NCBI GenBank assembly: GCA_032000125.1
Contig: DAMALH010000016.1
Location: forward strand, 2,580-66,579
Direction: 5' to 3'
Length of the DNA: 64,000 nucleotides
DNA from: Buttiauxella sp.
Lineage (GTDB): Bacteria > Pseudomonadota > Gammaproteobacteria > Enterobacterales > Enterobacteriaceae
Positions 37,387-49,791 of this stretch are shown here, piece after piece (the first letter of the stretch is position 1; the number at the start of each line of letters is the position of its first letter). A program made the position numbers and the translations under genes. The notes below the pieces were generated by a model, which saw only the letters and a program-made list of their open reading frames with translations, was not told the origin of the DNA and did not search any database.

Positions 37387-37551
37387 TCCGCTTCCTGTTC
37401 AAACTGCGTCTAGTGTGGCGGAAAGCCCCCGTGCTGTGCCAGCAGATTCGATTAAATGTGATCGCGATCGTAATGATGGTGGAAATTTTCAGTATATATG
37501 TATTATTGTGATAAAAATTTTCACCACAATAAGTCCTCGGGGAGAAAATTT

Positions 37552-39108
37552 ATGTCAGTATTCAGCGGAGCCTCATCAGGGAGCTGGTTCGAGAAGGCCC
37601 AGCGGTTTGGAAAATCCTTTATGCTGCCGGTCGCGGTGTTGCCCGCGGCGGGTTTGCTGCTGGGTATCGGCGGTGCGTTATCCAACCCTAATACCGTTGC
37701 GGCCTGGCCATTCCTGGATGTGGCATGGCTTCAGGGCATTTTCACCATCATGGCAAGCGCCGGCTCTATCGTATTTGCCAACCTCGCGGTGCTGTTTGCC
37801 GTGGGGGTCGCCGTTGGGCTTGCGAAGGGCGATAAGGGAACGGCAGGGCTTGCCTCGCTGCTGGCCTATCTGGTAATGAACGCCACCATCAATGCGCTGC
37901 TGACGCTAAGCGGCGCGCTGGCGACAGCCAATCCAGGCGCTGTAGGGCAGGGGATGGCGCTTGGTACGCAGACGCTTGAAACCGGCGTGTTTGGCGGGGT
38001 CGTCATCGGTCTTGTCACCTCGCTGTTGCATAACCGCTATAACAAAATCGAGCTGCCGCAGTTTCTCGGATTCTTTGGCGGATCGCGTTTTGTGCCGATC
38101 GTCAGCTCGCTGGCGGCGATTGTGGTCGGCGCGGTAATGACGCTTGTCTGGCCGCATTTCCAGAAGCTCATTTTCGGCATGGGCGGTCTGGTGGACGCCA
38201 CCGGCTACTTCGGCACCTTTATTTACGGCTTTGTGCTGCGCATGCTTGGCCCGTTCGGCCTGCACCATATCTTCTATTTACCTTTCTGGACTACCGCGCT
38301 TGGCGGCAGCGAGATGATTAACGGCCAGCTTGTGGAGGGCACGCAGCGTATTTTCTTCGCCCAGCTTGGCGATCCTGATACCCAGCAGTTTTACATCGGC
38401 ACCGCGCGCTTTATGTCAGGACGCTTTATCACCATGATGTTTGGTCTGATTGGCGCCTGCCTTGCGATGTACCATACGGCTAAGCCGGAAAACCGCAAAC
38501 GCGTGGCCGGGCTGTTAATCTCCGCGGCGCTGACCTCTTTCCTTACCGGCATCACCGAGCCGATTGAATTCTCGTTCCTGTTTATCGCCCCGGTTCTGTA
38601 CGTGATTCACGCGGTATTCGACGGGCTGGCCTTTATGCTGGCGCATATTCTGCACATCACCATCGGGCAAACCTTCTCCGGCGGCTTTATCGACTTCATG
38701 CTGTTTGGCGTGCTGCAGGGCGAAGCGAAAACTAACTGGCTATTTGTGCCGCTGGTGGGTATCCCGTGGTTCTTTCTTTATTACTTCACCTTCCGTTTTG
38801 TCATCACGCGCTTCAACTTTAAAACGCCGGGTCGTGAAGATGTCTCCACGGAAAATGTGCAGGTTGCGGCGGGGGAGCGCCCTTTACAGGTCATCATCGC
38901 GCTTGGCGGCAAAGAAAACATTGTTGAGCTGGATTGCTGTGCCACCAGGCTGCGCGTCACGCTGCATGACGGCACGCTTGTCGATGAAGCCTTGCTAAAA
39001 GAAACCGGCGCGCGGGCGGTTATCCGCCGTGGGAACGGCGTGCAGGTGATTTACGGTCCACACGTGACCATTATTAAAAATGAAGTAGAGGAGATTCTTG
39101 CCCCATGA
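37552..39108 (+). CDS. PTS transporter, fused EIIC-EIIB of the glucose/N-acetylglucosamine family; no EIIA domain
   Basis: ORF track 37498..39108. I prefer the ATG at 37552, preceded by GGGGAGAAAA. It has a polytopic EIIC with the GITEPIEF motif and a C-terminal EIIB with phospho-cysteine context [10 protein letters not shown]. Confidence 0.8.
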
Positions 39109-39803
39109 AACCATCCATGCTGTCGCAAATTGAGGGAAAACTCATTGTCTCCTGCCAGGCGCTGGATAACGAACCGCTGCACAGCCCGTTTATTATGTCG
39201 CGAATGGCGCTGGCCGCGGCGCAGGGAGGTGCGTCGGCTATCCGTGCCAACAGCCTTATCGACGTAAAAACGATTATGGATGCGGTGGATTTACCCGTTA
39301 TCGCCATCATCAAGCGCGACTATCCGGGGAGCGATGTTTACATTACGGCAACGCTTAAAGAAGTGGATGAACTGATGGCGGTCAAACCAGCGATGATCGC
39401 GATGGATGCCACCGGGCATGAGCGTCCGGGCGAGCTGGATTTGCGTGGGCTGGTCGAGGCGGTTCGCAGCCGTTATCCGGAGCTGCTGCTGATGGCGGAT
39501 ATCGCCACGGTGGACGAAGCGCGCTATGCCGAAGAAATCGGTTTTGACTGCGTTGGCACCACGCTGCACGGCTACACGTCGGAAACTAAAGGGCAAATGC
39601 TGGCAAACAACGATTGTCAGTTCCTGCGCGATGTCCTGGCTGCGGTGAACCTGCCGGTGATTGCCGAAGGTAATGTTGAAACGCCAGCAATGGCGGCTCG
39701 TTGCCTGGCGCTGGGCGCGCATGCGGTGGTGGTAGGCGGGGCGATAACCCGTCCGCAGCAGATCACCAGCCGCTTCGTAAATGCCATGGTTAAGCAAGGG
39801 TAA
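39105..39803 (+). CDS. nanE: N-acetylmannosamine-6-phosphate 2-epimerase (NanE family)
   Basis: ORF track, 232 aa. It has a [10 protein letters not shown]...GGASAIRAN...AIIKRDY pattern typical of NanE, and an ATGA overlap with the PTS gene. Confidence 0.8.
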
Positions 39804-39915
39804 CCATGGCCGACCGGCTCGGTCGCCCCCCGATTGAGCCGGTCACCCCCTTTAAGCATGATCTCAGTCGCCAGTTCTGCGATAATTAGTTTTTACGACT
39901 ATTACAGAGATGATT

Positions 39916-40587
39916 ATGCAGTACCCGATTAACGAGATGTTCCAGACCCTGCAAGGGGAGGGCTATTTTACCGGTGTGCCCGCCATCTTTATCCGCCTGC
40001 AGGGCTGCCCGGTGGGCTGCGCGTGGTGCGATACCAAACACACCTGGGATAAACTCGCGGATCGTGAAGTGTCTCTGTTCAGTATTCTCGCCAAAACTAA
40101 AGAGAGCGATAAATGGGGCGCGGCAAGCGCGGAAGACTTGCTGGCCGTGATGCAGCGTCAGGGCTACACCGCCCGTCACGTGGTGATTACCGGCGGTGAA
40201 CCATGTATCCACGATCTGCATCCCTTAACGTCTTTGCTGGAACACCACGGCTTTAGCTGCCAGATTGAAACCAGCGGCACGCACGATGTCCGCTGCTCGG
40301 CGGCAACCTGGGTAACGGTATCGCCGAAGGTGAATATGCGCGGCGGTTACGACGTGCTTGCTCAGGCGCTGGAACGAGCGGACGAAATCAAACATCCCGT
40401 TGGCCGCATGCGCGACATCGAGGCGTTAGATGAGCTGCTAAGAACGCTTCACGATGACAAAAACCGCATTATCGCCCTGCAGCCTATCAGCCAGAAAGAA
40501 GACGCCACCCGGCTGTGTATTGAAACCTGCATTGCCCGCAACTGGCGGCTTTCGATGCAGACGCATAAGTACCTGAATATCGCCTAG
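39916..40587 (+). CDS. queE: 7-carboxy-7-deazaguanine synthase QueE (radical SAM)
   Basis: ORF track 39910..40587. MQYPINEMFQTLQGEGYFTGVPAIFIRLQGCPVGCAWCDTKHTW matches E. coli QueE. Confidence 0.95.
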   Translation: MQYPINEMFQTLQGEGYFTGVPAIFIRLQGCPVGCAWCDTKHTWDKLADREVSLFSILAKTKESDKWGAASAEDLLAVMQRQGYTARHVVITGGEPCIHDLHPLTSLLEHHGFSCQIETSGTHDVRCSAATWVTVSPKVNMRGGYDVLAQALERADEIKHPVGRMRDIEALDELLRTLHDDKNRIIALQPISQKEDATRLCIETCIARNWRLSMQTHKYLNIA

Positions 40588-40775: not shown

Positions 40776-42224
40776 TTAGTCGACCAGCGGACTCAGCTTC
40801 TGCAACAGCGGGTCAAGGTACTGATTCACCTGCCGATAAACCCCTTCGTTAAGCTGCGTATAAAATGTGTGGTTGCCCATATTGGGCTGGAAGTTATCGC
40901 CCATGCGAATCATCTTCTCGCTCGCTTCCTCGTAGCTTGCGAATGTGCCCACCGCCATCCCGGCGTTAATTGCGCAGCCCACGGAGGCTGAACCTTTCAG
41001 CAGATTGCGGCAGGTTGGCACGCCGAACACGTCGGCAAAAATCTGCATAAACAGGTCGCTGTTGGCGCCGCCGCCGGAAATGATTAGCTGTTTAAACGGC
41101 GTTTTAAGCTCCAGCGCCATCTTGTCCATGTGATTTTTCATGGTGAAGGCAATGCCCTCCAGAATCGAGCGGTACATATGCGCCCGGGTATGGCGGCCGT
41201 CAAAACCAATTATCGTCCCTTTGCGGAACTCAGCCTCCGAAGGCGGCGCCCAGTCGTGAACGGTGATGAGCCCCTCGCAGCCTGCGGGTACTTTTGTGGC
41301 CTCGGCGTTGAGCAATTCTTCGATGGTTAAATCGAGGTCTTTCGCGTCCGCCAGCGCCGCGGCGCCAAACTGATCCCGGAACCAGCTTATCGTCCACATT
41401 CCCCGGCGAACGCCCATGCATTCATAGAGGTAGCGATGAGGAATCGAGGCCTGGAAAGGCCAGAAGTTTTGCGCGTCCTTCACGTTTTCATCGCCGTGGA
41501 CCATTGCGCCGATATAGGTACCCAGGGAGATAAGCGCCACGCCTTTCTCAAGCGTACCTGCACCAAGGGCTTCTACCGCTTTATCATGCGCCGTTGCCAC
41601 AACCGGAATACCGGCCGGAAGGCCAATAAGCCTGGCCGCTTTGTCAGTTAATTTGCCCAGCACTTCCCCCGGCTTCACCACGTCCAGCACCTGCGCGCGT
41701 TCAAGATTACAGCTCTTCCACGCCTGCGGATCGGTGCTCCAGTCGAGCGTGTCATTGTCCATCGGCCACCAGCCGATGTAGTTGGCGCAGGTATCCTTAA
41801 ACTCGCCGGTCAGGCGATGGGTGATATAGCCCGACGTCGTGGTGACGTAGCGCACGCCCTGATAGGCATCAAGGTATTCGTAAGGCTTGTTGAGTCGCTT
41901 ATCCATCCAGTTGATCACCGGGTAAGCCAGCTCGCCGTTGGCCGTCAGCAGCACGCGGCAGCAGCGCACGATGCAAATCCCCATCGCCTGAATTCGGCTG
42001 GTATCGCGTCCCTGGCGGGTAAAATTCGCCACCGCCTCGCGGAAGGCGACCTGTAACGAGTCCCACAGATCGTCATCGGGGTGCTCCGCCAGCAGCGGCG
42101 CGGGAATATCCAGATTGCGCAGCGCCTGTTTCCCTTCGCTGACCACGTTGCCCTGCGTATCAAAAATCACCACCTTGGCGCTTTGCGTGCCGACATCCAC
42201 ACCCATCAAATAGTTAGTTGTCAT
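40776..42224 (-). CDS. ygcE: FGGY-family carbohydrate kinase (YgcE-like)
   Basis: ORF track, 482 aa, with the N-terminal FGGY motif LMGVDVGTQSAKVVIFD. It sits next to queE as in E. coli. Confidence 0.8.
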   Translation of the reverse strand: MTTNYLMGVDVGTQSAKVVIFDTQGNVVSEGKQALRNLDIPAPLLAEHPDDDLWDSLQVAFREAVANFTRQGRDTSRIQAMGICIVRCCRVLLTANGELAYPVINWMDKRLNKPYEYLDAYQGVRYVTTTSGYITHRLTGEFKDTCANYIGWWPMDNDTLDWSTDPQAWKSCNLERAQVLDVVKPGEVLGKLTDKAARLIGLPAGIPVVATAHDKAVEALGAGTLEKGVALISLGTYIGAMVHGDENVKDAQNFWPFQASIPHRYLYECMGVRRGMWTISWFRDQFGAAALADAKDLDLTIEELLNAEATKVPAGCEGLITVHDWAPPSEAEFRKGTIIGFDGRHTRAHMYRSILEGIAFTMKNHMDKMALELKTPFKQLIISGGGANSDLFMQIFADVFGVPTCRNLLKGSASVGCAINAGMAVGTFASYEEASEKMIRMGDNFQPNMGNHTFYTQLNEGVYRQVNQYLDPLLQKLSPLVD

Positions 42225-42247: not shown

Positions 42248-43537
42248 TTATTCAGCTATCGCCTGCGGTTCGGAGCCTGCCTGCTGCGAGCTTTGAATCT
42301 TTCTGAACAGCAGGAAGGTAAACACCAGCACCAGCCCCATGGCGCAGAGCCCCATGATCCACATGTTGCGATAGGCGATGGCGGCGGGCAGGGTGTCCTG
42401 CCAGTGGCCAACCAGCGGGTAAACAAACACGTCCGGCAGGAAGCCAATTACCGAACAAATCCCGACGGTGGTGCCCATAATGAACCCTGGCGTACGCGCC
42501 TCGCCCGGGCAGGCAAAGTAAAGCCCGCGAGAGGCGTAACAGGTAAAAGCGAGCAGCAAAATCAGGCCGATACCGATAGCCACGGACTGTGGCTGACGGG
42601 TAGTGACCAGCAGGGCGACCAGCGAAAGCACGCTTACGAGCGCCAGAAGCTGAATCACGCGCGTCGGGGATTTAACCCGGCTGTAGGTGGTAATCAGACC
42701 GCCGAGCGGGCCGCAGACGGCGCGGAAGATTTTATTGATAACGATGCCCATATAGCTCGCCGCCACCAGCGACATGCCGTACATTTCCGTCAGGTAGTTC
42801 GTGGAATAGCTCAGAATGGCGTAGATAGTGTAAACGCCAAAGATAATCATGCTGCAATACCAGGTGGTGCTGATGCGCAGCACGGAGACGATATCTTTTA
42901 GCTGAAACGCGGGTTTCGCCGCTTCTTCTGTAACAGCGGTGCGGCTGGTAAAGCCGTCGCTGACGAAGAACCAGCACAGCACGCCAAGCGCGATATAGAC
43001 GCCGCTGTAAATCAGAATCACCGCTTTTAAGCTGTTGGCGTCTTCCGGGGCGAAGCGTGAAAAAATCCACATGGTGAACACCGCCAGCGCCATTACGCCC
43101 ACGCCGCGCAGCCCTTCCATCCAGCCCATGATTTTTCCCTGCTCGCTGTGGTCGCCCAGCAACGATGCGGCTTTAATCGAGACCGACCACAGCATCAGGA
43201 TAGTAGTGATGGCAAACGCGACCTGGATGACGATCATTACCCAAAGCGGCGGGTAAAACGCCATTACAACGCCCAGCAGGCCCGTGGCGATCATCGCCAG
43301 CGTCATCATTTTTCTGTGTGAGAATTTGTCGGCAATAATGCCGCTCGGCGCATAAAGAATAATTGCGGTAATACCGAAAGTACTCATTATTAACCCTATT
43401 TCGGTATTGGAAAAGCCCATAAACTTTGCCATGGGAATTTGATAAATATACCGTAAATAGGCCAAGTCAAAACTTACCCCCCCGCTGATACTTATTATTG
43501 CCAGGGTCAGCCAGCGGCGGAAATTGGAATCACGCAT
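42248..43537 (-). CDS. yqcE: MFS transporter (YqcE-like)
   Basis: ORF track 42248..43666. The N-terminal 43 codons of that ORF run through the leader terminator, so I prefer the ATG at 43537 (MRDSNFRRWLTLAIISISGG...), preceded by GAGAAAG. Confidence 0.75.
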   Translation of the reverse strand: MRDSNFRRWLTLAIISISGGVSFDLAYLRYIYQIPMAKFMGFSNTEIGLIMSTFGITAIILYAPSGIIADKFSHRKMMTLAMIATGLLGVVMAFYPPLWVMIVIQVAFAITTILMLWSVSIKAASLLGDHSEQGKIMGWMEGLRGVGVMALAVFTMWIFSRFAPEDANSLKAVILIYSGVYIALGVLCWFFVSDGFTSRTAVTEEAAKPAFQLKDIVSVLRISTTWYCSMIIFGVYTIYAILSYSTNYLTEMYGMSLVAASYMGIVINKIFRAVCGPLGGLITTYSRVKSPTRVIQLLALVSVLSLVALLVTTRQPQSVAIGIGLILLLAFTCYASRGLYFACPGEARTPGFIMGTTVGICSVIGFLPDVFVYPLVGHWQDTLPAAIAYRNMWIMGLCAMGLVLVFTFLLFRKIQSSQQAGSEPQAIAE

Positions 43538-43570: not shown

Positions 43571-43632
43571 AAAAAAAAAGAAAAGCAACCAGTCCTTTGC
43601 AGGATGATTACTTTTCTCGGGGTCTCTAGTAA
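43571..43632 (-). terminator. 5'-leader element of yqcE: conserved box TTACTAGAGAC plus a long intrinsic terminator (about 17-bp stem, one bulged C, U9)
   Basis: The minus strand reads TTACTAGAGACCCCGAGAAAAGTAATCATCCTGCAAAGGACTGGTTGCTTTTCTTTTTTTTT. It lies between the predicted promoter and the yqcE start and is a near twin of 43791-43855. Confidence 0.65.
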
Positions 43633-43668
43633 TGGCCAGAATTAGTAACACACCGATAAATTCCATTG

Positions 43669-43684
43669 TGTGAGAAATATCACG
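43669..43684. promoter_or_regulatory. CRP-binding site candidate for the yqcE promoter
   Basis: TGTGA-GAAATA-TCACG matches 9 of 10 consensus half-site positions. Its centre lies about 44.5 bp from the start of the yqcE leader box, which is class II-like spacing. Confidence 0.55.
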
Positions 43685-43737
43685 ATTATGCTTTCGGTCT
43701 GCTTTTTATGGCCGTTAATTGCCCACAAAAACTAACT

Positions 43738-43753
43738 TGTGAAATACGTCACA
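43738..43753. promoter_or_regulatory. CRP-binding site candidate for the ygcW promoter
   Basis: TGTGA-AATACG-TCACA matches both consensus half-sites perfectly. Its centre lies about 45.5 bp from the start of the ygcW leader box. Confidence 0.65.
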
Positions 43754-43790
43754 AAACCTCCCGCGCGGCTATGCTATTTCTTTTAGCCAG

Positions 43791-43855
43791 TTACTAGAGA
43801 CGATGAGAAAAGTAACTTCCCTTTCGGGGGGAGCTTGCTTTTCTCATTTTTTTTG
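43791..43855 (+). terminator. 5'-leader element of ygcW: conserved box TTACTAGAGAC plus a long intrinsic terminator (10-bp perfect lower stem, bulged C, upper stem, U8)
   Basis: The plus strand reads TTACTAGAGACGATGAGAAAAGTAACTTCCCTTTCGGGGGGAGCTTGCTTTTCTCATTTTTTTT. It ends 26 nt before the ygcW ATG. Confidence 0.65.
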
Positions 43856-43880: not shown

Positions 43881-44666
43881 ATGTCACTTAGCGCGCTCAA
43901 TGAATTCTCGCTGGATTTCTTCTCGCTGAAGGGAAAAACGGCCATCGTCACCGGCGGCAACAGCGGGCTGGGCCAGGCGTTTGCCATGGCGCTGGCAAAA
44001 GCGGGAGCGAATCTATTTATCCCCACCCTGATTGCCGATAAGGGGGAAACGCAGGAACTCATTGAACAACAAGGCGTTAAGGTCGCCTTTATGACGGTTG
44101 ATATTACCGAAAAAGGGGCCCCGGCCAGGGTGATTGCCCGGTGTGTGGAAACGTTTGGTGCGGTGGATATTCTGGTCAACAATGCGGGAATCTGTAAGCT
44201 TAACAAGGTGCTGGACTTTGGCCGTGAAGACTGGGATCCGATGATCAACATTAATCTGACCGCCGCTTTTGAATTAAGCCACGAAGCCGCAAAGGTTATG
44301 ATTCCACGCAATCAAGGCAAGATTATTAATATTTGTTCACTCTTTTCATATCTCGGCGGGCAATGGTCGCCAGCATATTCTGCCACGAAGCACGCGCTGG
44401 CTGGATTAACCAAAGCGTATTGTGATGAGCTTGCGCAATATAACATTCAGGTAAACGGCATTGCCCCTGGCTATTACGCGACCGATATTACGACTGAAAC
44501 CCGCAGGAATCCGGAAACAAATAAACGCGTGCTCGATCATATTCCAGCCAACCGCTGGGGAGAAACTCAGGATCTCATGGGAGCGATGGTTTATTTATCA
44601 AGCCGCGCCTCTGATTATGTGAATGGTCATTTATTAGTTGTCGACGGTGGTTATCTGGTCAGGTAA
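43881..44666 (+). CDS. ygcW: Short-chain dehydrogenase/reductase, KduD/gluconate-5-dehydrogenase-like (YgcW-like)
   Basis: ORF track 43803..44666. The start of that ORF lies inside the leader terminator, so I prefer the ATG at 43881 (MSLSALNEF...), preceded by AAGGGG. It has the TGGNSGLG cofactor motif and the YSATKHA catalytic YxxxK. Confidence 0.8.
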   Translation: MSLSALNEFSLDFFSLKGKTAIVTGGNSGLGQAFAMALAKAGANLFIPTLIADKGETQELIEQQGVKVAFMTVDITEKGAPARVIARCVETFGAVDILVNNAGICKLNKVLDFGREDWDPMININLTAAFELSHEAAKVMIPRNQGKIINICSLFSYLGGQWSPAYSATKHALAGLTKAYCDELAQYNIQVNGIAPGYYATDITTETRRNPETNKRVLDHIPANRWGETQDLMGAMVYLSSRASDYVNGHLLVVDGGYLVR

Positions 44667-46256: not shown

Positions 46257-47612
46257 ATGTGCTCCGAACCGGTTCGCATGGACGACCTGCCTCTCAACCG
46301 TTTTCATCTCCGCATTGCCGGGCTGACGTTTGGCGCGCACCTCACCGACGGTTACGTGCTGGGCGTGATTGGCTTTGCGCTGGTGCAGCTCACGCCGCAA
46401 ATGTCCCTTACGCCGCTTCAGGAAGGCCTGATCGGCGGCTCGGCGCTGCTGGGCTTATTTTTCGGCAGCCTGGTGCTCGGCTGGATTTCAGACCATATCG
46501 GGCGCCAGAAAATTTTTAACTTCAGCTTTGTGCTCATCACGCTGGCCTCCTTTGGGCAATTTTTTGCCCAGACGCCGGAACAGCTTTTCTGGCTGCGGGT
46601 TCTGGTAGGTATTGGCCTGGGAGGCGATTATTCCGTAGGGCATACCATGCTGGCCGAGTTCTCGCCGCGCAAATATCGCGGCGTGCTTCTCGGCTCGTTT
46701 AGCGTGGTCTGGACGCTGGGCTATGTCGCGGCCAGCCTGATTGGCCATCAGCTGGTGGATGCCGGGCCGGACGCCTGGCGCTGGCTGCTGGCCTCCGCCT
46801 CATTGCCCGCGCTGGTGATTACGATCCTGCGCTGGGGGACGCCGGAATCTCCCCGCTGGCTGCTGCGTTAGGGGCGGGTTGAGCAGGCTCATCGGATTGT
46901 GCGCCAGTATCTGGGCGAGCATGTGATGCTCGGCGATGAGATAGCCGTCTCTACATCGCGCCATCTGCGAACGCTGTTTTCCGCTCGCTACTGGCGGCGC
47001 ACCGCTTTTAATAGCTTCTTTTTCGTTTGTCTGGTGATCCCATACTTCGCTATTTACACCTGGCTGCCGTCTATCAGCGGCCTGCTGGGGATAGGCCAGG
47101 GGCTGAGCGCGACGATCTTTTTAAACGTCGTGCTGGTCGTCGGCGCCTTGTTGGGGCTGGTGCTGACGCAATGCTGTACCCGGCGCGGCTTCCTGATTGG
47201 CGGCTTTCTGGTCCTGCTGGTGAGCCTGACCACGCTGGCCCTGCTTCCGGCCCATTTCAGCACCGCGATTCTGCTGCTGTTCTTTATCTTCACGCTGACA
47301 ATCTCGGCGGTGAGTAACCTGGTGGGCGTGCTGCCCGCGGAAAGCTTCCCGACGGACATCCGTTCGCTTGGCGTCGGATTCGCCACCTCAATGAGCCGTC
47401 TTGGTTCAGCTATCAGCACCGGGCTGCTGCCGGTGGCGCTGGTATCTTACGGCGTGCAGAGCACCATGCTGATGCTAAGCGCCGTGCTGCTGCTGGGGCT
47501 GCTGGTTTCCGTGTTCTGGGCGCCAGAAACCCGCAATCTCAGCCTGGTTGCGGCCTCCGGTAATAAGGAATATCACCCGGGAGCGACGCATGAACATTCT
47601 GTTAGCCTTTAA
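46257..47612 (+). pseudogene. ygcS: MFS sugar-porter-type transporter (YgcS-like) interrupted by one in-frame TAG at 46869-46871
   Basis: ORF-track entries 46257..46871 and 46899..47612 are in the same frame. The reading ...ESPRWLLR-TAG-GRVEQAHRIVRQYLGE... is continuous across the stop and spans the conserved PESPRWL loop of sugar-porter MFS proteins. An AAGGAA Shine-Dalgarno precedes 46257. Confidence 0.7.
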
Positions 47613-48369: not shown

Positions 48370-49232
48370 AAATTGCTCTGGTTATGCCGGATGGAGAAAG
48401 TCAGCAGCGCAATGAGTTTGGAAGCTTTCTTGCTAACAGCCGCCTGACTTCAGCGGCGTGCGAGCGCTGGCAGCTTCCCGCTATGGATTTTACGGAAAAT
48501 GCGTTAGCCGCACTTGCCGCTGAGTTTGCGCAAAATGCGGTAGATATGCTGCTTTTCCCTTCCGGCTGGCAGGGGGCTGAACTGGCAACGCGCCTGGCGT
48601 TCAGGCTTGGCGGCGATGCGCTGAGCAACGTCAACCACGGAGATTTTGCCGATCGGTGCAGCGTGAACAAACCCGCCTGTGGCGGAGCGATGGAAGCCGA
48701 AATCAGGCTACAAACCAGGCCCTGGTGCCTTAGCGTAGCAGCGGCGCCGGGGGCGACGGCCTGGCAGCCCGATTGCCCCACGGTGCCTCTTGCGGCAACA
48801 GACGCTGAACCGGACTGGCTGGTAAGCCAAAGTACAATACTTAAGGCGCAGGCGGGTGGATTAGCGGAGGCAAAGTTTGTGCTGGCGGCAGGGCGGGGAG
48901 TAGAAAGCGCGGACAATATGCGGCGGTTCGAAGCGCTGGCGGAACAGTGGGGGGCAGAGGTTGGCGCGAGCCGCGAAGCCGTAATGCACGCCTGGTGCGG
49001 CATGGATCGTCTGATAGGGATGTCCGGCACCCAGGTGGCGCCAGAGATTTGTATTGTAGCCGGTGTCTCGGGAGCTTCCGCTTTTACCAGCGGAATTAAC
49101 CGTAGCCGGTTTATCGTCGCTATCAACAACGATCCCCAGGCGCCTGTTTTCAGGCAGGCGGACGTGGGGGTTGTTGATGAGCTGATGCCGGTGCTCGAAG
49201 CGCTGGACGAACTCGCTACGGCAAAAGCTTAG
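48366..49232 (+). CDS. ygcQ: Electron-transfer-flavoprotein alpha-subunit-like protein (YgcQ-like)
   Basis: ORF track, 288 aa. The C-terminal FAD-binding signature is GMSGTQVAPEICIVAGVSGASAFTSGINRSRFIVAINNDPQAPVF. Confidence 0.8.
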   Translation: MKIALVMPDGESQQRNEFGSFLANSRLTSAACERWQLPAMDFTENALAALAAEFAQNAVDMLLFPSGWQGAELATRLAFRLGGDALSNVNHGDFADRCSVNKPACGGAMEAEIRLQTRPWCLSVAAAPGATAWQPDCPTVPLAATDAEPDWLVSQSTILKAQAGGLAEAKFVLAAGRGVESADNMRRFEALAEQWGAEVGASREAVMHAWCGMDRLIGMSGTQVAPEICIVAGVSGASAFTSGINRSRFIVAINNDPQAPVFRQADVGVVDELMPVLEALDELATAKA

Positions 49233-49791
49233 CCAGTTGCCAGACGCCGGTATTAGTCGTGGCGATGGCGAGCGCGCCGGCGTTTAACGCGTTATTGGCG
49301 TCTTCCGCATCGCAAACCAGGCCCCCGGCGATAACCGGCAGATCGATCTTATCCGTTACCCACTTCATCACTTTTGGCATGCAGCCCGGCAGGATTTCGA
49401 TGCAGTCCGGGTTCGACTGCGCCACCTGCTTATCGATATTGTGATAGGAAATTGAATCAACGATAAACAGCCGGTGAATGGCGAAAAACCCCTGCGCGCG
49501 TGCGGCTTTCACCATCGACGCTTTGGTGCTGATGATGCCATCGGCGGCCGTCACCAGCTTCAGGAAGTTAATCACGATCTCTTTATTCGAGGTGCCTTCC
49601 AGTAAATCCACATGCACAAAGGCGTACTTATCGGCCTTTTTGATCTGCTGGACGATGCCGGTAATGGTGCAGATATTGCCATAGAGCACGGAAATAAACT
49701 TACAGTCAGACTCCAGCGCGAGCTGCAGGCTCTGGTTATCTTTTACCGCGGCGATAAGCGGGTGTTGCTTGAGTAAAGGCATTAAAGACAC
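49216..49791 (-). CDS. ygcP: GlpP-family (glycerol-3-phosphate-responsive type) transcription antiterminator homologue (YgcP-like)
   Basis: ORF track, 191 aa. It has a PLIAAVKD...VLYGNI...FVHVDLLEG pattern typical of the G3P_antiterm family. It overlaps the ygcQ 3' end convergently by 17 nt. Confidence 0.75.
   Translation of the reverse strand: MSLMPLLKQHPLIAAVKDNQSLQLALESDCKFISVLYGNICTITGIVQQIKKADKYAFVHVDLLEGTSNKEIVINFLKLVTAADGIISTKASMVKAARAQGFFAIHRLFIVDSISYHNIDKQVAQSNPDCIEILPGCMPKVMKWVTDKIDLPVIAGGLVCDAEDANNALNAGALAIATTNTGVWQLAKLLP

Follow-up and report, generated by a model that had tools for sequence, protein, structure and literature searches.

Background

GlpP-dependent antitermination has been known since the 1990s. 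In Bacillus subtilis GlpP acts on the glpD leader, and antitermination by GlpP has been described for the leaders of glpD, glpFK and glpTQ (Holmberg & Rutberg 1991-92; Glatz et al. 1996, 1998; Darbon et al. 2002; all as cited in passages of PMC9604022 and PMC10573289). The B. subtilis glpD leader has already been taken into the synthetic-biology toolbox. In this study a 64,000-nucleotide stretch of DNA from Buttiauxella sp. (contig DAMALH010000016.1, positions 2,580 to 66,579; the whole stretch is referred to as the window) was analysed with respect to the divergent genes yqcE and ygcW of the ygc cluster, each of which is preceded by a short leader RNA. The two leaders are mirror-image twins, and they contain two mutually exclusive helices, an intrinsic terminator and a helix between a 5' box and the 5' arm of that terminator, supported by compensatory changes in the sequence alignments. 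The cluster also encodes YgcP, a protein of the same family as GlpP (PF04309), and we consider it probable that both leaders are sites of YgcP-dependent antitermination which follows on CRP-activated transcription.

In E. coli YgcP is annotated only as a "putative anti-terminator regulatory protein", so a leader terminator is in principle no surprise. To our knowledge the ygc cluster is one of the larger gene clusters of E. coli without known function, and the RNA-binding mode of the PF04309 family has never been defined. Literature searches gave no RNA target, ligand or phenotype for YgcP and no description of these leaders, and in a riboswitch-prediction paper (PMC4448311) ygcW is named only as the neighbour of unrelated windows.

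Other described attenuation systems share parts of the proposed layout. The ribonucleic antiterminator (RAT) systems of BglG, SacY and LicT resemble it in that a sequence-specific protein stabilises a weak 5' hairpin overlapping the 5' arm of the terminator, with termination as the default, but their CAT-PRD fold is unrelated to the TIM-barrel-like PF04309 proteins, and control in the ygc case would be by a small ligand instead of phosphorylation by the phosphotransferase system (PTS). A neighbouring CAT-PRD protein, as expected for a RAT-type system, was not found; the 17 neighbouring proteins scanned with Pfam and NCBIfam contain neither a CAT nor a PRD domain. The systems of HutP, TRAP and PyrR likewise combine tandem NAG/GAG-type repeats near a terminator with metabolite-dependent binding, but they differ in protein family and stoichiometry, and HutP and TRAP read 6-11 triplets on an unstructured strand whereas the ygc leaders have two repeats in a hairpin loop.

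Organisation and folding of the twin leaders

The spacer between yqcE (ATG 43537, minus strand) and ygcW (ATG 43881, plus strand) is 344 bp long, and when reading its sequence every element of the twin leaders listed in the preliminary description was found in its place (Table 1). In both copies a box at the 5' end is followed by the two GAGA repeats, then by the long hairpin with its U-run, and the repeat segment reads AGAGAC-GAU-GAGAAA in the ygcW leader and AGAGAC-CCC-GAGAAA in the yqcE leader. Folding gave a minimum free energy (MFE) of -30.6 kcal/mol for the ygcW leader (z -5.1) and -24.7 kcal/mol for the yqcE leader (z -4.2), with 0 of 200 shuffled sequences as stable in either case, and the plus-strand (ygcW) copy was also picked up by a terminator scan. 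The alternative helix between the box and the 5' arm, described earlier as 5 bp, does exist but is longer, with 7 bp in ygcW (AGUUACU/AGUAACU) and 6 bp in yqcE (AUUACU/AGUAAU). Of the bulged C described for both hairpins, the single-base bulge in the 3' arm turned out to be common across species, whereas the identity of the base varies and the E. coli ygcW hairpin has no bulge.

A 25-nt degenerate pattern consisting of the box and the lower stem, TTACYAGAGAYNNNGAGAAARGTAA, occurs twice in the 64 kb window (0 expected), and no further copies of the motif were found elsewhere in the window, in the E. coli ygc region or upstream of ygcN-ygcO-ygcP. A search of Rfam 15 (4,227 families, permissive thresholds) gave best matches with E-values of 0.8-10, far below the gathering scores; the matches of the leader region to mir-1252 and ctRNA were at chance level and were discarded.

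Within the second GAGA repeat of the ygcW leader (GAUGAG) there is an AUG, at 43803-43805 of the window, that is in frame with ygcW and opens an open reading frame (ORF) of 287 aa. An upstream ORF starting at 43803 was considered and rejected because the AUG is not conserved, other leaders having GAAGAG, CCUGAG or CAGAGAG in this position. Gene callers may place the ygcW start wrongly, inside the terminator hairpin.

Distribution and genomic context

A covariance model (R1) was built from eight leader instances and run over 70 sources. Enterobacterial loci were obtained by a scan of genome contigs with a YgcP alignment that kept the best 80 loci, all of them from Enterobacterales, and the distant ygcP loci were collected individually. 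In 56 enterobacterial sources, the window and E. coli K-12 included, two strong matches of 47-91 bits each were found, always as divergent pairs 108-244 bp apart. All ygcP loci that extend to the operon starts carry the motif, 56 of 56 in enterobacteria and 8 of 8 among the distant ones, across three phyla; all 64 of these complete motif-bearing loci were found via YgcP, and the co-occurrence covers the direction from ygcP to the motif only. Seven ygcP loci had no match, all of them on contigs ending short of the ygcW-yqcE spacer, and the weaker matches of the model fall on the opposite strand of these hairpins.

The twin layout is found in E. coli K-12 too, with leaders far more conserved than the remaining spacer and with a compensatory A-U to G-C change. 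The alignment of this region from E. coli and other genera, proposed as a check in the preliminary description, revealed both conservation and covariation. Of 5,426 complete E. coli genomes 5,064 carry the element, at a median of two places per genome, and in none of the 5,064 is it annotated. A motif search of a plasmid collection matched only mislabelled E. coli chromosomes. In Limnobaculum eriocheiris (locus L015, 13860-13960) the spacer has collapsed to ~130 bp. Only one hairpin lies in it, between A9 and T9, boxes and CRP sites are missing, and promoters would not fit; the twin leaders appear to have fused into one bidirectional terminator there, and the cluster may be silent.

The distant motif-bearing loci belong to Vibrio hannami, Clostridium sediminicola, Thalassobacillus, Sporomusa, Fodinisporobacter, Photobacterium, a metagenome-assembled Firmicutes genome and one further genome, and the YgcP homologues of these distant carriers are 55-60% identical to YgcP of the window. 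All 124 motif instances (124/124) are sense-oriented and located directly upstream of the first gene of a ygc-type operon, at most 300 nt from the start codon in 122 cases and 383 nt in one (a Sporomusa BCCT transporter). The gene that follows encodes a short-chain dehydrogenase/reductase (SDR) in 62 cases, a major facilitator superfamily (MFS) transporter in 57, a flavin adenine dinucleotide (FAD) oxidase in two, and an FGGY kinase and a BCCT transporter in one each, and for one instance (L061) no downstream ORF was called. In the loci examined the motif never precedes ygcP itself. Gene order is reshuffled among phyla and transporters are exchanged, yet the motif stays at the operon starts, and YgcP and the motif travel together across Proteobacteria and Firmicutes.

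The distant ygc-type clusters (L004, L086-L089, L172, L173 and L002) have kept the SDR, the FGGY kinase, the FAD oxidase and the electron transfer flavoprotein (ETF), while the transporter is swapped for one of BCCT, OpuAC-type ABC or MFS type, and in some of them the FAD oxidase/ETF module is duplicated, with a ferredoxin-fused ETF. Carriers of the BCCT and OpuAC types are a hint that the substrate resembles a quaternary amine or a compatible solute. Two Vibrio hannami assemblies (L003 2434-4062 and L002 2430-4189) differ in the ETF alpha and beta genes, which are intact in only one of them and broken into several short ORFs in the other; this could be due to assembly errors or to decay.

Two competing helices

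Covariation was analysed in a model-based alignment (A5) of 122 leaders, 118 of them distinct. Among the 118 distinct sequences 89.6% of the terminator cells are paired and 14 of the 21 pairs show changes on both sides, with pairing well above that of shuffled and slid controls, in agreement with the earlier proposal that the hairpins are leader terminators. The helix between the box and the 5' arm lies outside the covariance model, so the alignment was not fitted to it, and here 93.5% of the cells are paired compared with 16-55% when the partner is slid. Compensatory changes were found at three of its seven pairs (GC77/AU37, UA84/CG28 and AU116/GC1); in the yqcE copy the box has A in place of the G of the ygcW copy, and the arm correspondingly has U in place of C. 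The 28 sequences with C-G in the box helix are the same 28 that have G-C at the matching terminator pair. This three-way covariation of box, 5' arm and 3' arm is characteristic of competing helices. Many of the covarying cells are inherited splits between the ygcW-type and yqcE-type paralogues. Independent events are seen in the distant leaders, with the pairings AAUUACU/AGUAAUU in Sporomusa and L089, GUUGCC/GGCGAC in L061, GGUUGCU/AGCGA(A)CC in Fodinisporobacter (L086) and GUUGCU/AGCGAC in L172.

The 5' hairpin, the putative antiterminator, is the MFE fold of the first ~33 nt, with -1.3 to -6.7 kcal/mol across leaders (-4.5 kcal/mol in ygcW and -1.3 kcal/mol in yqcE), and the terminator, at -25 to -31 kcal/mol, is far stronger. 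This difference suggests that termination is the default and that read-through needs a stabilising factor.

CRP sites and promoters

The consensus CRP sites described earlier on both sides of the spacer centre were found at their positions, but at the distances from the boxes given in Table 1 rather than the ~45 bp first reported. The spacing is shared by nearly all Enterobacterales loci, with the centre of a consensus CRP site 42.5-44.5 nt (mode 43.5) away from the first base of the box. With CRP at -41.5 this fixed spacing places the transcript start 1-3 nt before the box, and 1-2 nt before it in the window, and the geometry points to class II activation; for this assignment the distance between CRP centre and box was measured and the start sites are predicted from it. 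In Clostridium both copies of the box begin 6 nt after a perfect TTGACA-17-TATACT promoter, which puts the box at the extreme 5' end of the RNA.

In E. coli the CRP part of this regulation is already known and the leaders are not. A CRP site in the ygcW-yqcE spacer was predicted early by computation (PMC1794230), and binding of CRP, at the orthologue of the 43738-43753 site, has been detected by chromatin immunoprecipitation (PMC4287617), by genomic SELEX (systematic evolution of ligands by exponential enrichment; PMC3105977) and by Footprint-seq with a Kd of 1.7 nM (PMC12871828). Binding of the RpoD holoenzyme and of H-NS has also been reported (PMC3946193), and yqcE-ygcE is included in a list of Crp-activated genes (PMC8085971).

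3' ends of E. coli transcripts

Term-seq data from E. coli MG1655 (Adams et al. 2021, eLife, PMC7815308, Supplementary file 3, sheet LB 0.4) contain a Rho-independent 3' end in each of the two leaders (Table 1), neither of which is marked there as a characterised element. As neither leader has a gene upstream other than the divergent one, these orphan ends belong to short transcripts with a start in the spacer and an end at the hairpin. Starts upstream of the hairpins and premature ends at them are thus indicated in E. coli, as the preliminary description had anticipated.

The abundance of the terminated ygcW leader in LB (40,640 reads; PMC7815308) raises the question whether the terminators are outside the control of YgcP. 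They could be constitutive dampers of CRP-driven transcription, respond to another factor (Hfq and a small RNA (sRNA), the ribosome or NusG) or release a stable ~60-nt sRNA acting in trans, and such a role is in line with the lack of a known read-through condition and with the hairpin and U-tail, which are like the 3' end of an Hfq-binding sRNA. None of this explains the conserved 5' box and its three-way covariation with both arms, the likeness to GlpP-dependent leaders or the conservation in Firmicutes, where the Hfq/sRNA logic differs, and we regard it as unlikely. An sRNA role in trans could, however, exist alongside attenuation.

The 3' ends bear also on a function at the DNA level, since long, sequence-conserved palindromes beside promoters could be operators for a DNA-binding regulator of the divergent pair. 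RNA ends are found at the elements, which lie downstream of the predicted start sites and are always followed by a U-run on the sense strand. The stems are moreover rich in G-U pairs and in changes via G-U, which would be mismatches in DNA, the loop length and the upper-stem sequence vary freely, and a scan of 17 neighbouring proteins gave no DNA-binding regulator. Operators of this kind are for these reasons highly improbable.

Comparison with canonical GlpP leaders

The gene reported as a GlpP homologue in the cluster indeed encodes a PF04309 (G3P_antiterm) protein (Table 1), and the crystal structure of Listeria GlpP (PDB 3KTS) matches YgcP with an E-value of 1.7e-32. The YgcP of the window has 99% identity to a protein of Buttiauxella. 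For comparison with leaders of the canonical type, a set was collected from the B. subtilis glpD 5' untranslated region (UTR; PMC9604022 Table S4), an Oceanobacillus iheyensis locus and 80 metagenomic glpP-glpF-glpK-glpD loci, giving an alignment (A7) of 44 leaders, 41 of them distinct, from which a signature was derived that is specific to this study and not an established definition. The glpD, glpF and glpK leaders consist of AAGUUAAUA at the 5' end, a short spacer, a box of 3-5 nt, the repeats GGAGA-N3-GGAGA(R)A and then a terminator starting with CCAC..., the first bases of which are complementary to the box, and the B. subtilis glpD segment folds into the corresponding hairpin between box and terminator arm. 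The canonical motif is located next to glpP in Firmicutes (L090 11170-11253; L092-L171). These canonical leaders gave no match in Rfam, and the motif could be published as a separate RNA family.

The ygc leader, with AGUUACU, AGAGA-N3-UGAGA-AA and AGUAACU..., looks like a compact counterpart of this layout. Both kinds have AGUUA at the 5' end and two GAG repeats with an 8-nt period in a weak hairpin, the 3' strand of which starts the 5' arm of the terminator. The pattern GAGN-N3-5-GAGR is present in 105 of 108 ygc leaders and 39 of 41 canonical ones, compared with 0.5% of 44-nt background windows, and the modal distance between the GAG starts is 8 nt in both sets (86/108 and 35/41, respectively). 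When R1 was run over 528 kb of canonical glpP loci, at least seven of its 12 best sub-threshold matches fell on glp leaders. Further likenesses are the protein family, catabolic operons with an intrinsic terminator in the 5' UTR, a regulon that includes a kinase able to make a phosphorylated inducer, and a regulator gene which itself has no element upstream.

The two kinds differ in that the ygc leader is more compact, its 5'-terminal AGUUACU serving as the antiterminator strand with no spacer and no separate box, and in that its repeats are A/UGAGA where the canonical ones are GGAGA. The sequence of the ygc terminator (GAGAAAAGUAACUUCC...) is conserved across phyla, and in Enterobacterales the leaders form a mirror-image pair behind predicted class II CRP sites. 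The regulated genes are not glpFKD but encode an SDR, an FAD oxidase with ETF, an FGGY kinase and transporters, and the ligand of YgcP is therefore probably not glycerol-3-phosphate. The attempt to treat ygc and canonical leaders as one alignable RNA family failed, as cross-detection by R1 and the canonical model R2 was not significant. The locus thus has the PF04309 gene in the cluster, the terminator between promoter and gene, the overlapping alternative structure and the AGUUA and GAG signature of a PF04309-type leader, but does not align with the canonical leaders in a covariance model; the ygc leader would work like a GlpP leader, and the two probably share a recognition signature, yet they are separate motifs.

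Riboswitch attenuators, too, have covarying antiterminator and terminator helices in a 5' UTR that exclude each other, and together with the strong conservation of the loop this architecture could mean that the box/GAGA hairpin itself binds a pathway metabolite and blocks the terminator, YgcP having another role, for example as an enzyme-like TIM-barrel protein. The candidate aptamer would consist of a helix of 6-7 bp and a purine-rich loop of 15 nt with no further conserved structure, too simple for an obvious aptamer, and no Rfam family matches it. In B. subtilis the canonical leaders with tandem GAG depend on GlpP, and a gene of this dedicated RNA-binding protein family stands beside every instance examined, in loci that were collected via YgcP. 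A protein-free riboswitch is accordingly quite unlikely.

Proposed mechanism

In the antitermination mechanism that we favour, cyclic AMP (cAMP)-CRP bound ~41.5 bp upstream of the start would activate two back-to-back promoters, and each transcript would begin 1-3 nt before the box. The nascent RNA of ~30 nt can form the weak hairpin in which AGUUACU and AGUAACU pair and a 15-nt loop shows the two GAGA repeats 8 nt apart. As AGUAACU is also the lower 5' arm of the far stronger terminator (~20 bp, then U8-9), the terminator would by default displace the weak hairpin and transcription would end ~25-40 nt before the start codon, an outcome that the Term-seq data show for E. coli. With the inducer present, YgcP would bind and lock the GAGA-repeat hairpin, the terminator would be blocked and transcription would read through into ygcW-ygcU-... 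and yqcE-ygcE. If the pair of glycerol-3-phosphate and GlpP is a guide, the most likely inducer is a phosphorylated product of the FGGY kinase YgcE. With initiation under CRP and elongation under YgcP, expression of the cluster would need both catabolite de-repression and substrate.

Several points weigh against this mechanism. Binding of ligand-loaded YgcP to the leader RNA is suggested by association and analogy, and the association of ygcP and motif was seen in loci collected through YgcP; in Enterobacterales ygcP moreover belongs to another operon, at a distance of ~5 kb. The start sites are predicted, and their -10 elements are weak. The E. coli 3' ends lie a few nt before the long U-run, at the 3' edge of the GC-rich upper stem in ygcW (L001 12312) and in the first U stretch of the 3' arm in yqcE (L001 12557), so that either termination at a proximal U stretch or 3' trimming must be assumed. 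With regard to the canonical leaders, R1 gave only sub-threshold matches on GlpP loci, none of them significant, R2 (built from the 44 canonical leaders) did not match the ygc leaders with filters on or off, and the features in common are short and were recognised only in hindsight.

A wider proposal, on which we are evenly divided when its parts are taken jointly, is that the ygc and canonical glp leaders are two branches of one undescribed class of protein-responsive RNA switches. The recognition site of PF04309 proteins would be a pair of GAG repeats with 8-nt spacing, exposed in the loop of a weak hairpin at the 5' end; the ygc branch would be a minimised form in which the 5'-terminal AGUUA doubles as antiterminator strand and which has spread over Proteobacteria and Firmicutes with a catabolic cluster (SDR, FGGY kinase, FAD oxidase/ETF); and the ligand of YgcP would be the phosphorylated intermediate of the substrate in place of glycerol-3-phosphate.

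Features of the locus

The gene order of the ygc cluster in the window is syntenic with that of E. coli, and ygcP is the last gene of the ygcN-ygcO-ygcP operon, separate from the two operons that carry the leaders. The MFS transporter gene ygcS (445 aa in E. coli) is split by an in-frame TAG at 46869-46871 (...ctg cgt TAG ggg...) into two ORFs in the same frame, 46257-46871 and 46899-47612, and is either a pseudogene in this genome or affected by a sequencing error. On the ygcE side, a PTS EIICB gene and a NanE-like epimerase gene (37498-40587) are located between the cluster and queE, whereas in E. coli K-12 the interval between ygcE and queE is only an unannotated gap of ~1.4 kb; the flank of the cluster thus differs between genera.

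Table 1. Features of the ygc locus in the Buttiauxella window, and 3' ends in the corresponding E. coli MG1655 leaders (MG1655 coordinates)
Feature	Position	Strand	Remarks
ygcW, SDR oxidoreductase	43881..44666	+	heads operon ygcW-ygcU-ygcS (split)-ygcR-ygcQ
yqcE, MFS transporter	42248..43537	-	heads operon yqcE-ygcE
ygcE, FGGY kinase	40776-42224	-	second gene of yqcE-ygcE
ygcP, PF04309 (G3P_antiterm) protein, proposed trans-acting antiterminator	49216..49791	-	Pfam E 2.3e-63
ygcW leader RNA (attenuator)	43787..43854	+	R1 score 88.6 bits; 24 nt 5' of ygcW start codon
yqcE leader RNA (attenuator), mirror-image twin	43571..43635	-	R1 score 71.2 bits; 29 nt 5' of yqcE start codon
ygcW box AGUUACU, putative antiterminator 5' strand	43789..43795	+	partner AGUAACU 43811-43817
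yqcE box (C)AUUACU	43628..43634	-	partner AGUAAU 43612-43607
ygcW tandem GAGA-N4-GAGA, 8-nt period, loop of antiterminator hairpin; proposed protein-binding site	43797..43808	+	from sequence
ygcW GAGA repeats singly	43797-43800, 43805-43808	+	from sequence
yqcE tandem GAGA-N4-GAGA	43615..43626 (repeats 43626-43623, 43618-43615)	-	from sequence
ygcW intrinsic terminator hairpin	43805..43845	+	then U8 at 43847-43854
yqcE intrinsic terminator hairpin	43580..43618	-	then U-run to 43571
CRP site TGTGAAATACGTCACA	43738..43753	.	centre 43.5 nt from first base of ygcW box; class II geometry
CRP site TGTGAGAAATATCACG	43669..43684	.	centre 42.5 nt from first base of yqcE box
Term-seq 3' end, E. coli MG1655	2900311	-	38 nt 5' of ygcW; mean reads 40,640; Rho score 0.50 (not significant); intrinsic score 15.8 (PMC7815308)
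Term-seq 3' end, E. coli MG1655	2900556	+	36 nt 5' of yqcE; mean reads 1,557; Rho score 0.61 (not significant); intrinsic score 11.4 (PMC7815308)

Conclusions

The ygc element stands apart from canonical glp leaders by its sequence, its compactness, the genes it would regulate and its pairing with CRP promoters, and if the mechanism is true, no GlpP-type attenuation system would have been defined in Gram-negative bacteria before it. Comparing it with ~40 canonical glp leaders points to a rule by which all PF04309 proteins might recognise their RNA. Annotation pipelines and the synthetic-biology toolbox could both take up the element, which is small, portable and outside Rfam. The study supplies a precise target for experiments, two leaders of ~65 nt with a 7-bp helix and two GAGA repeats, and a fusion of leader and reporter could be used to screen for the inducer and hence for the substrate of the pathway. 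An uncharacterised gene cluster of E. coli and its orphan regulator thereby become a directly testable system.

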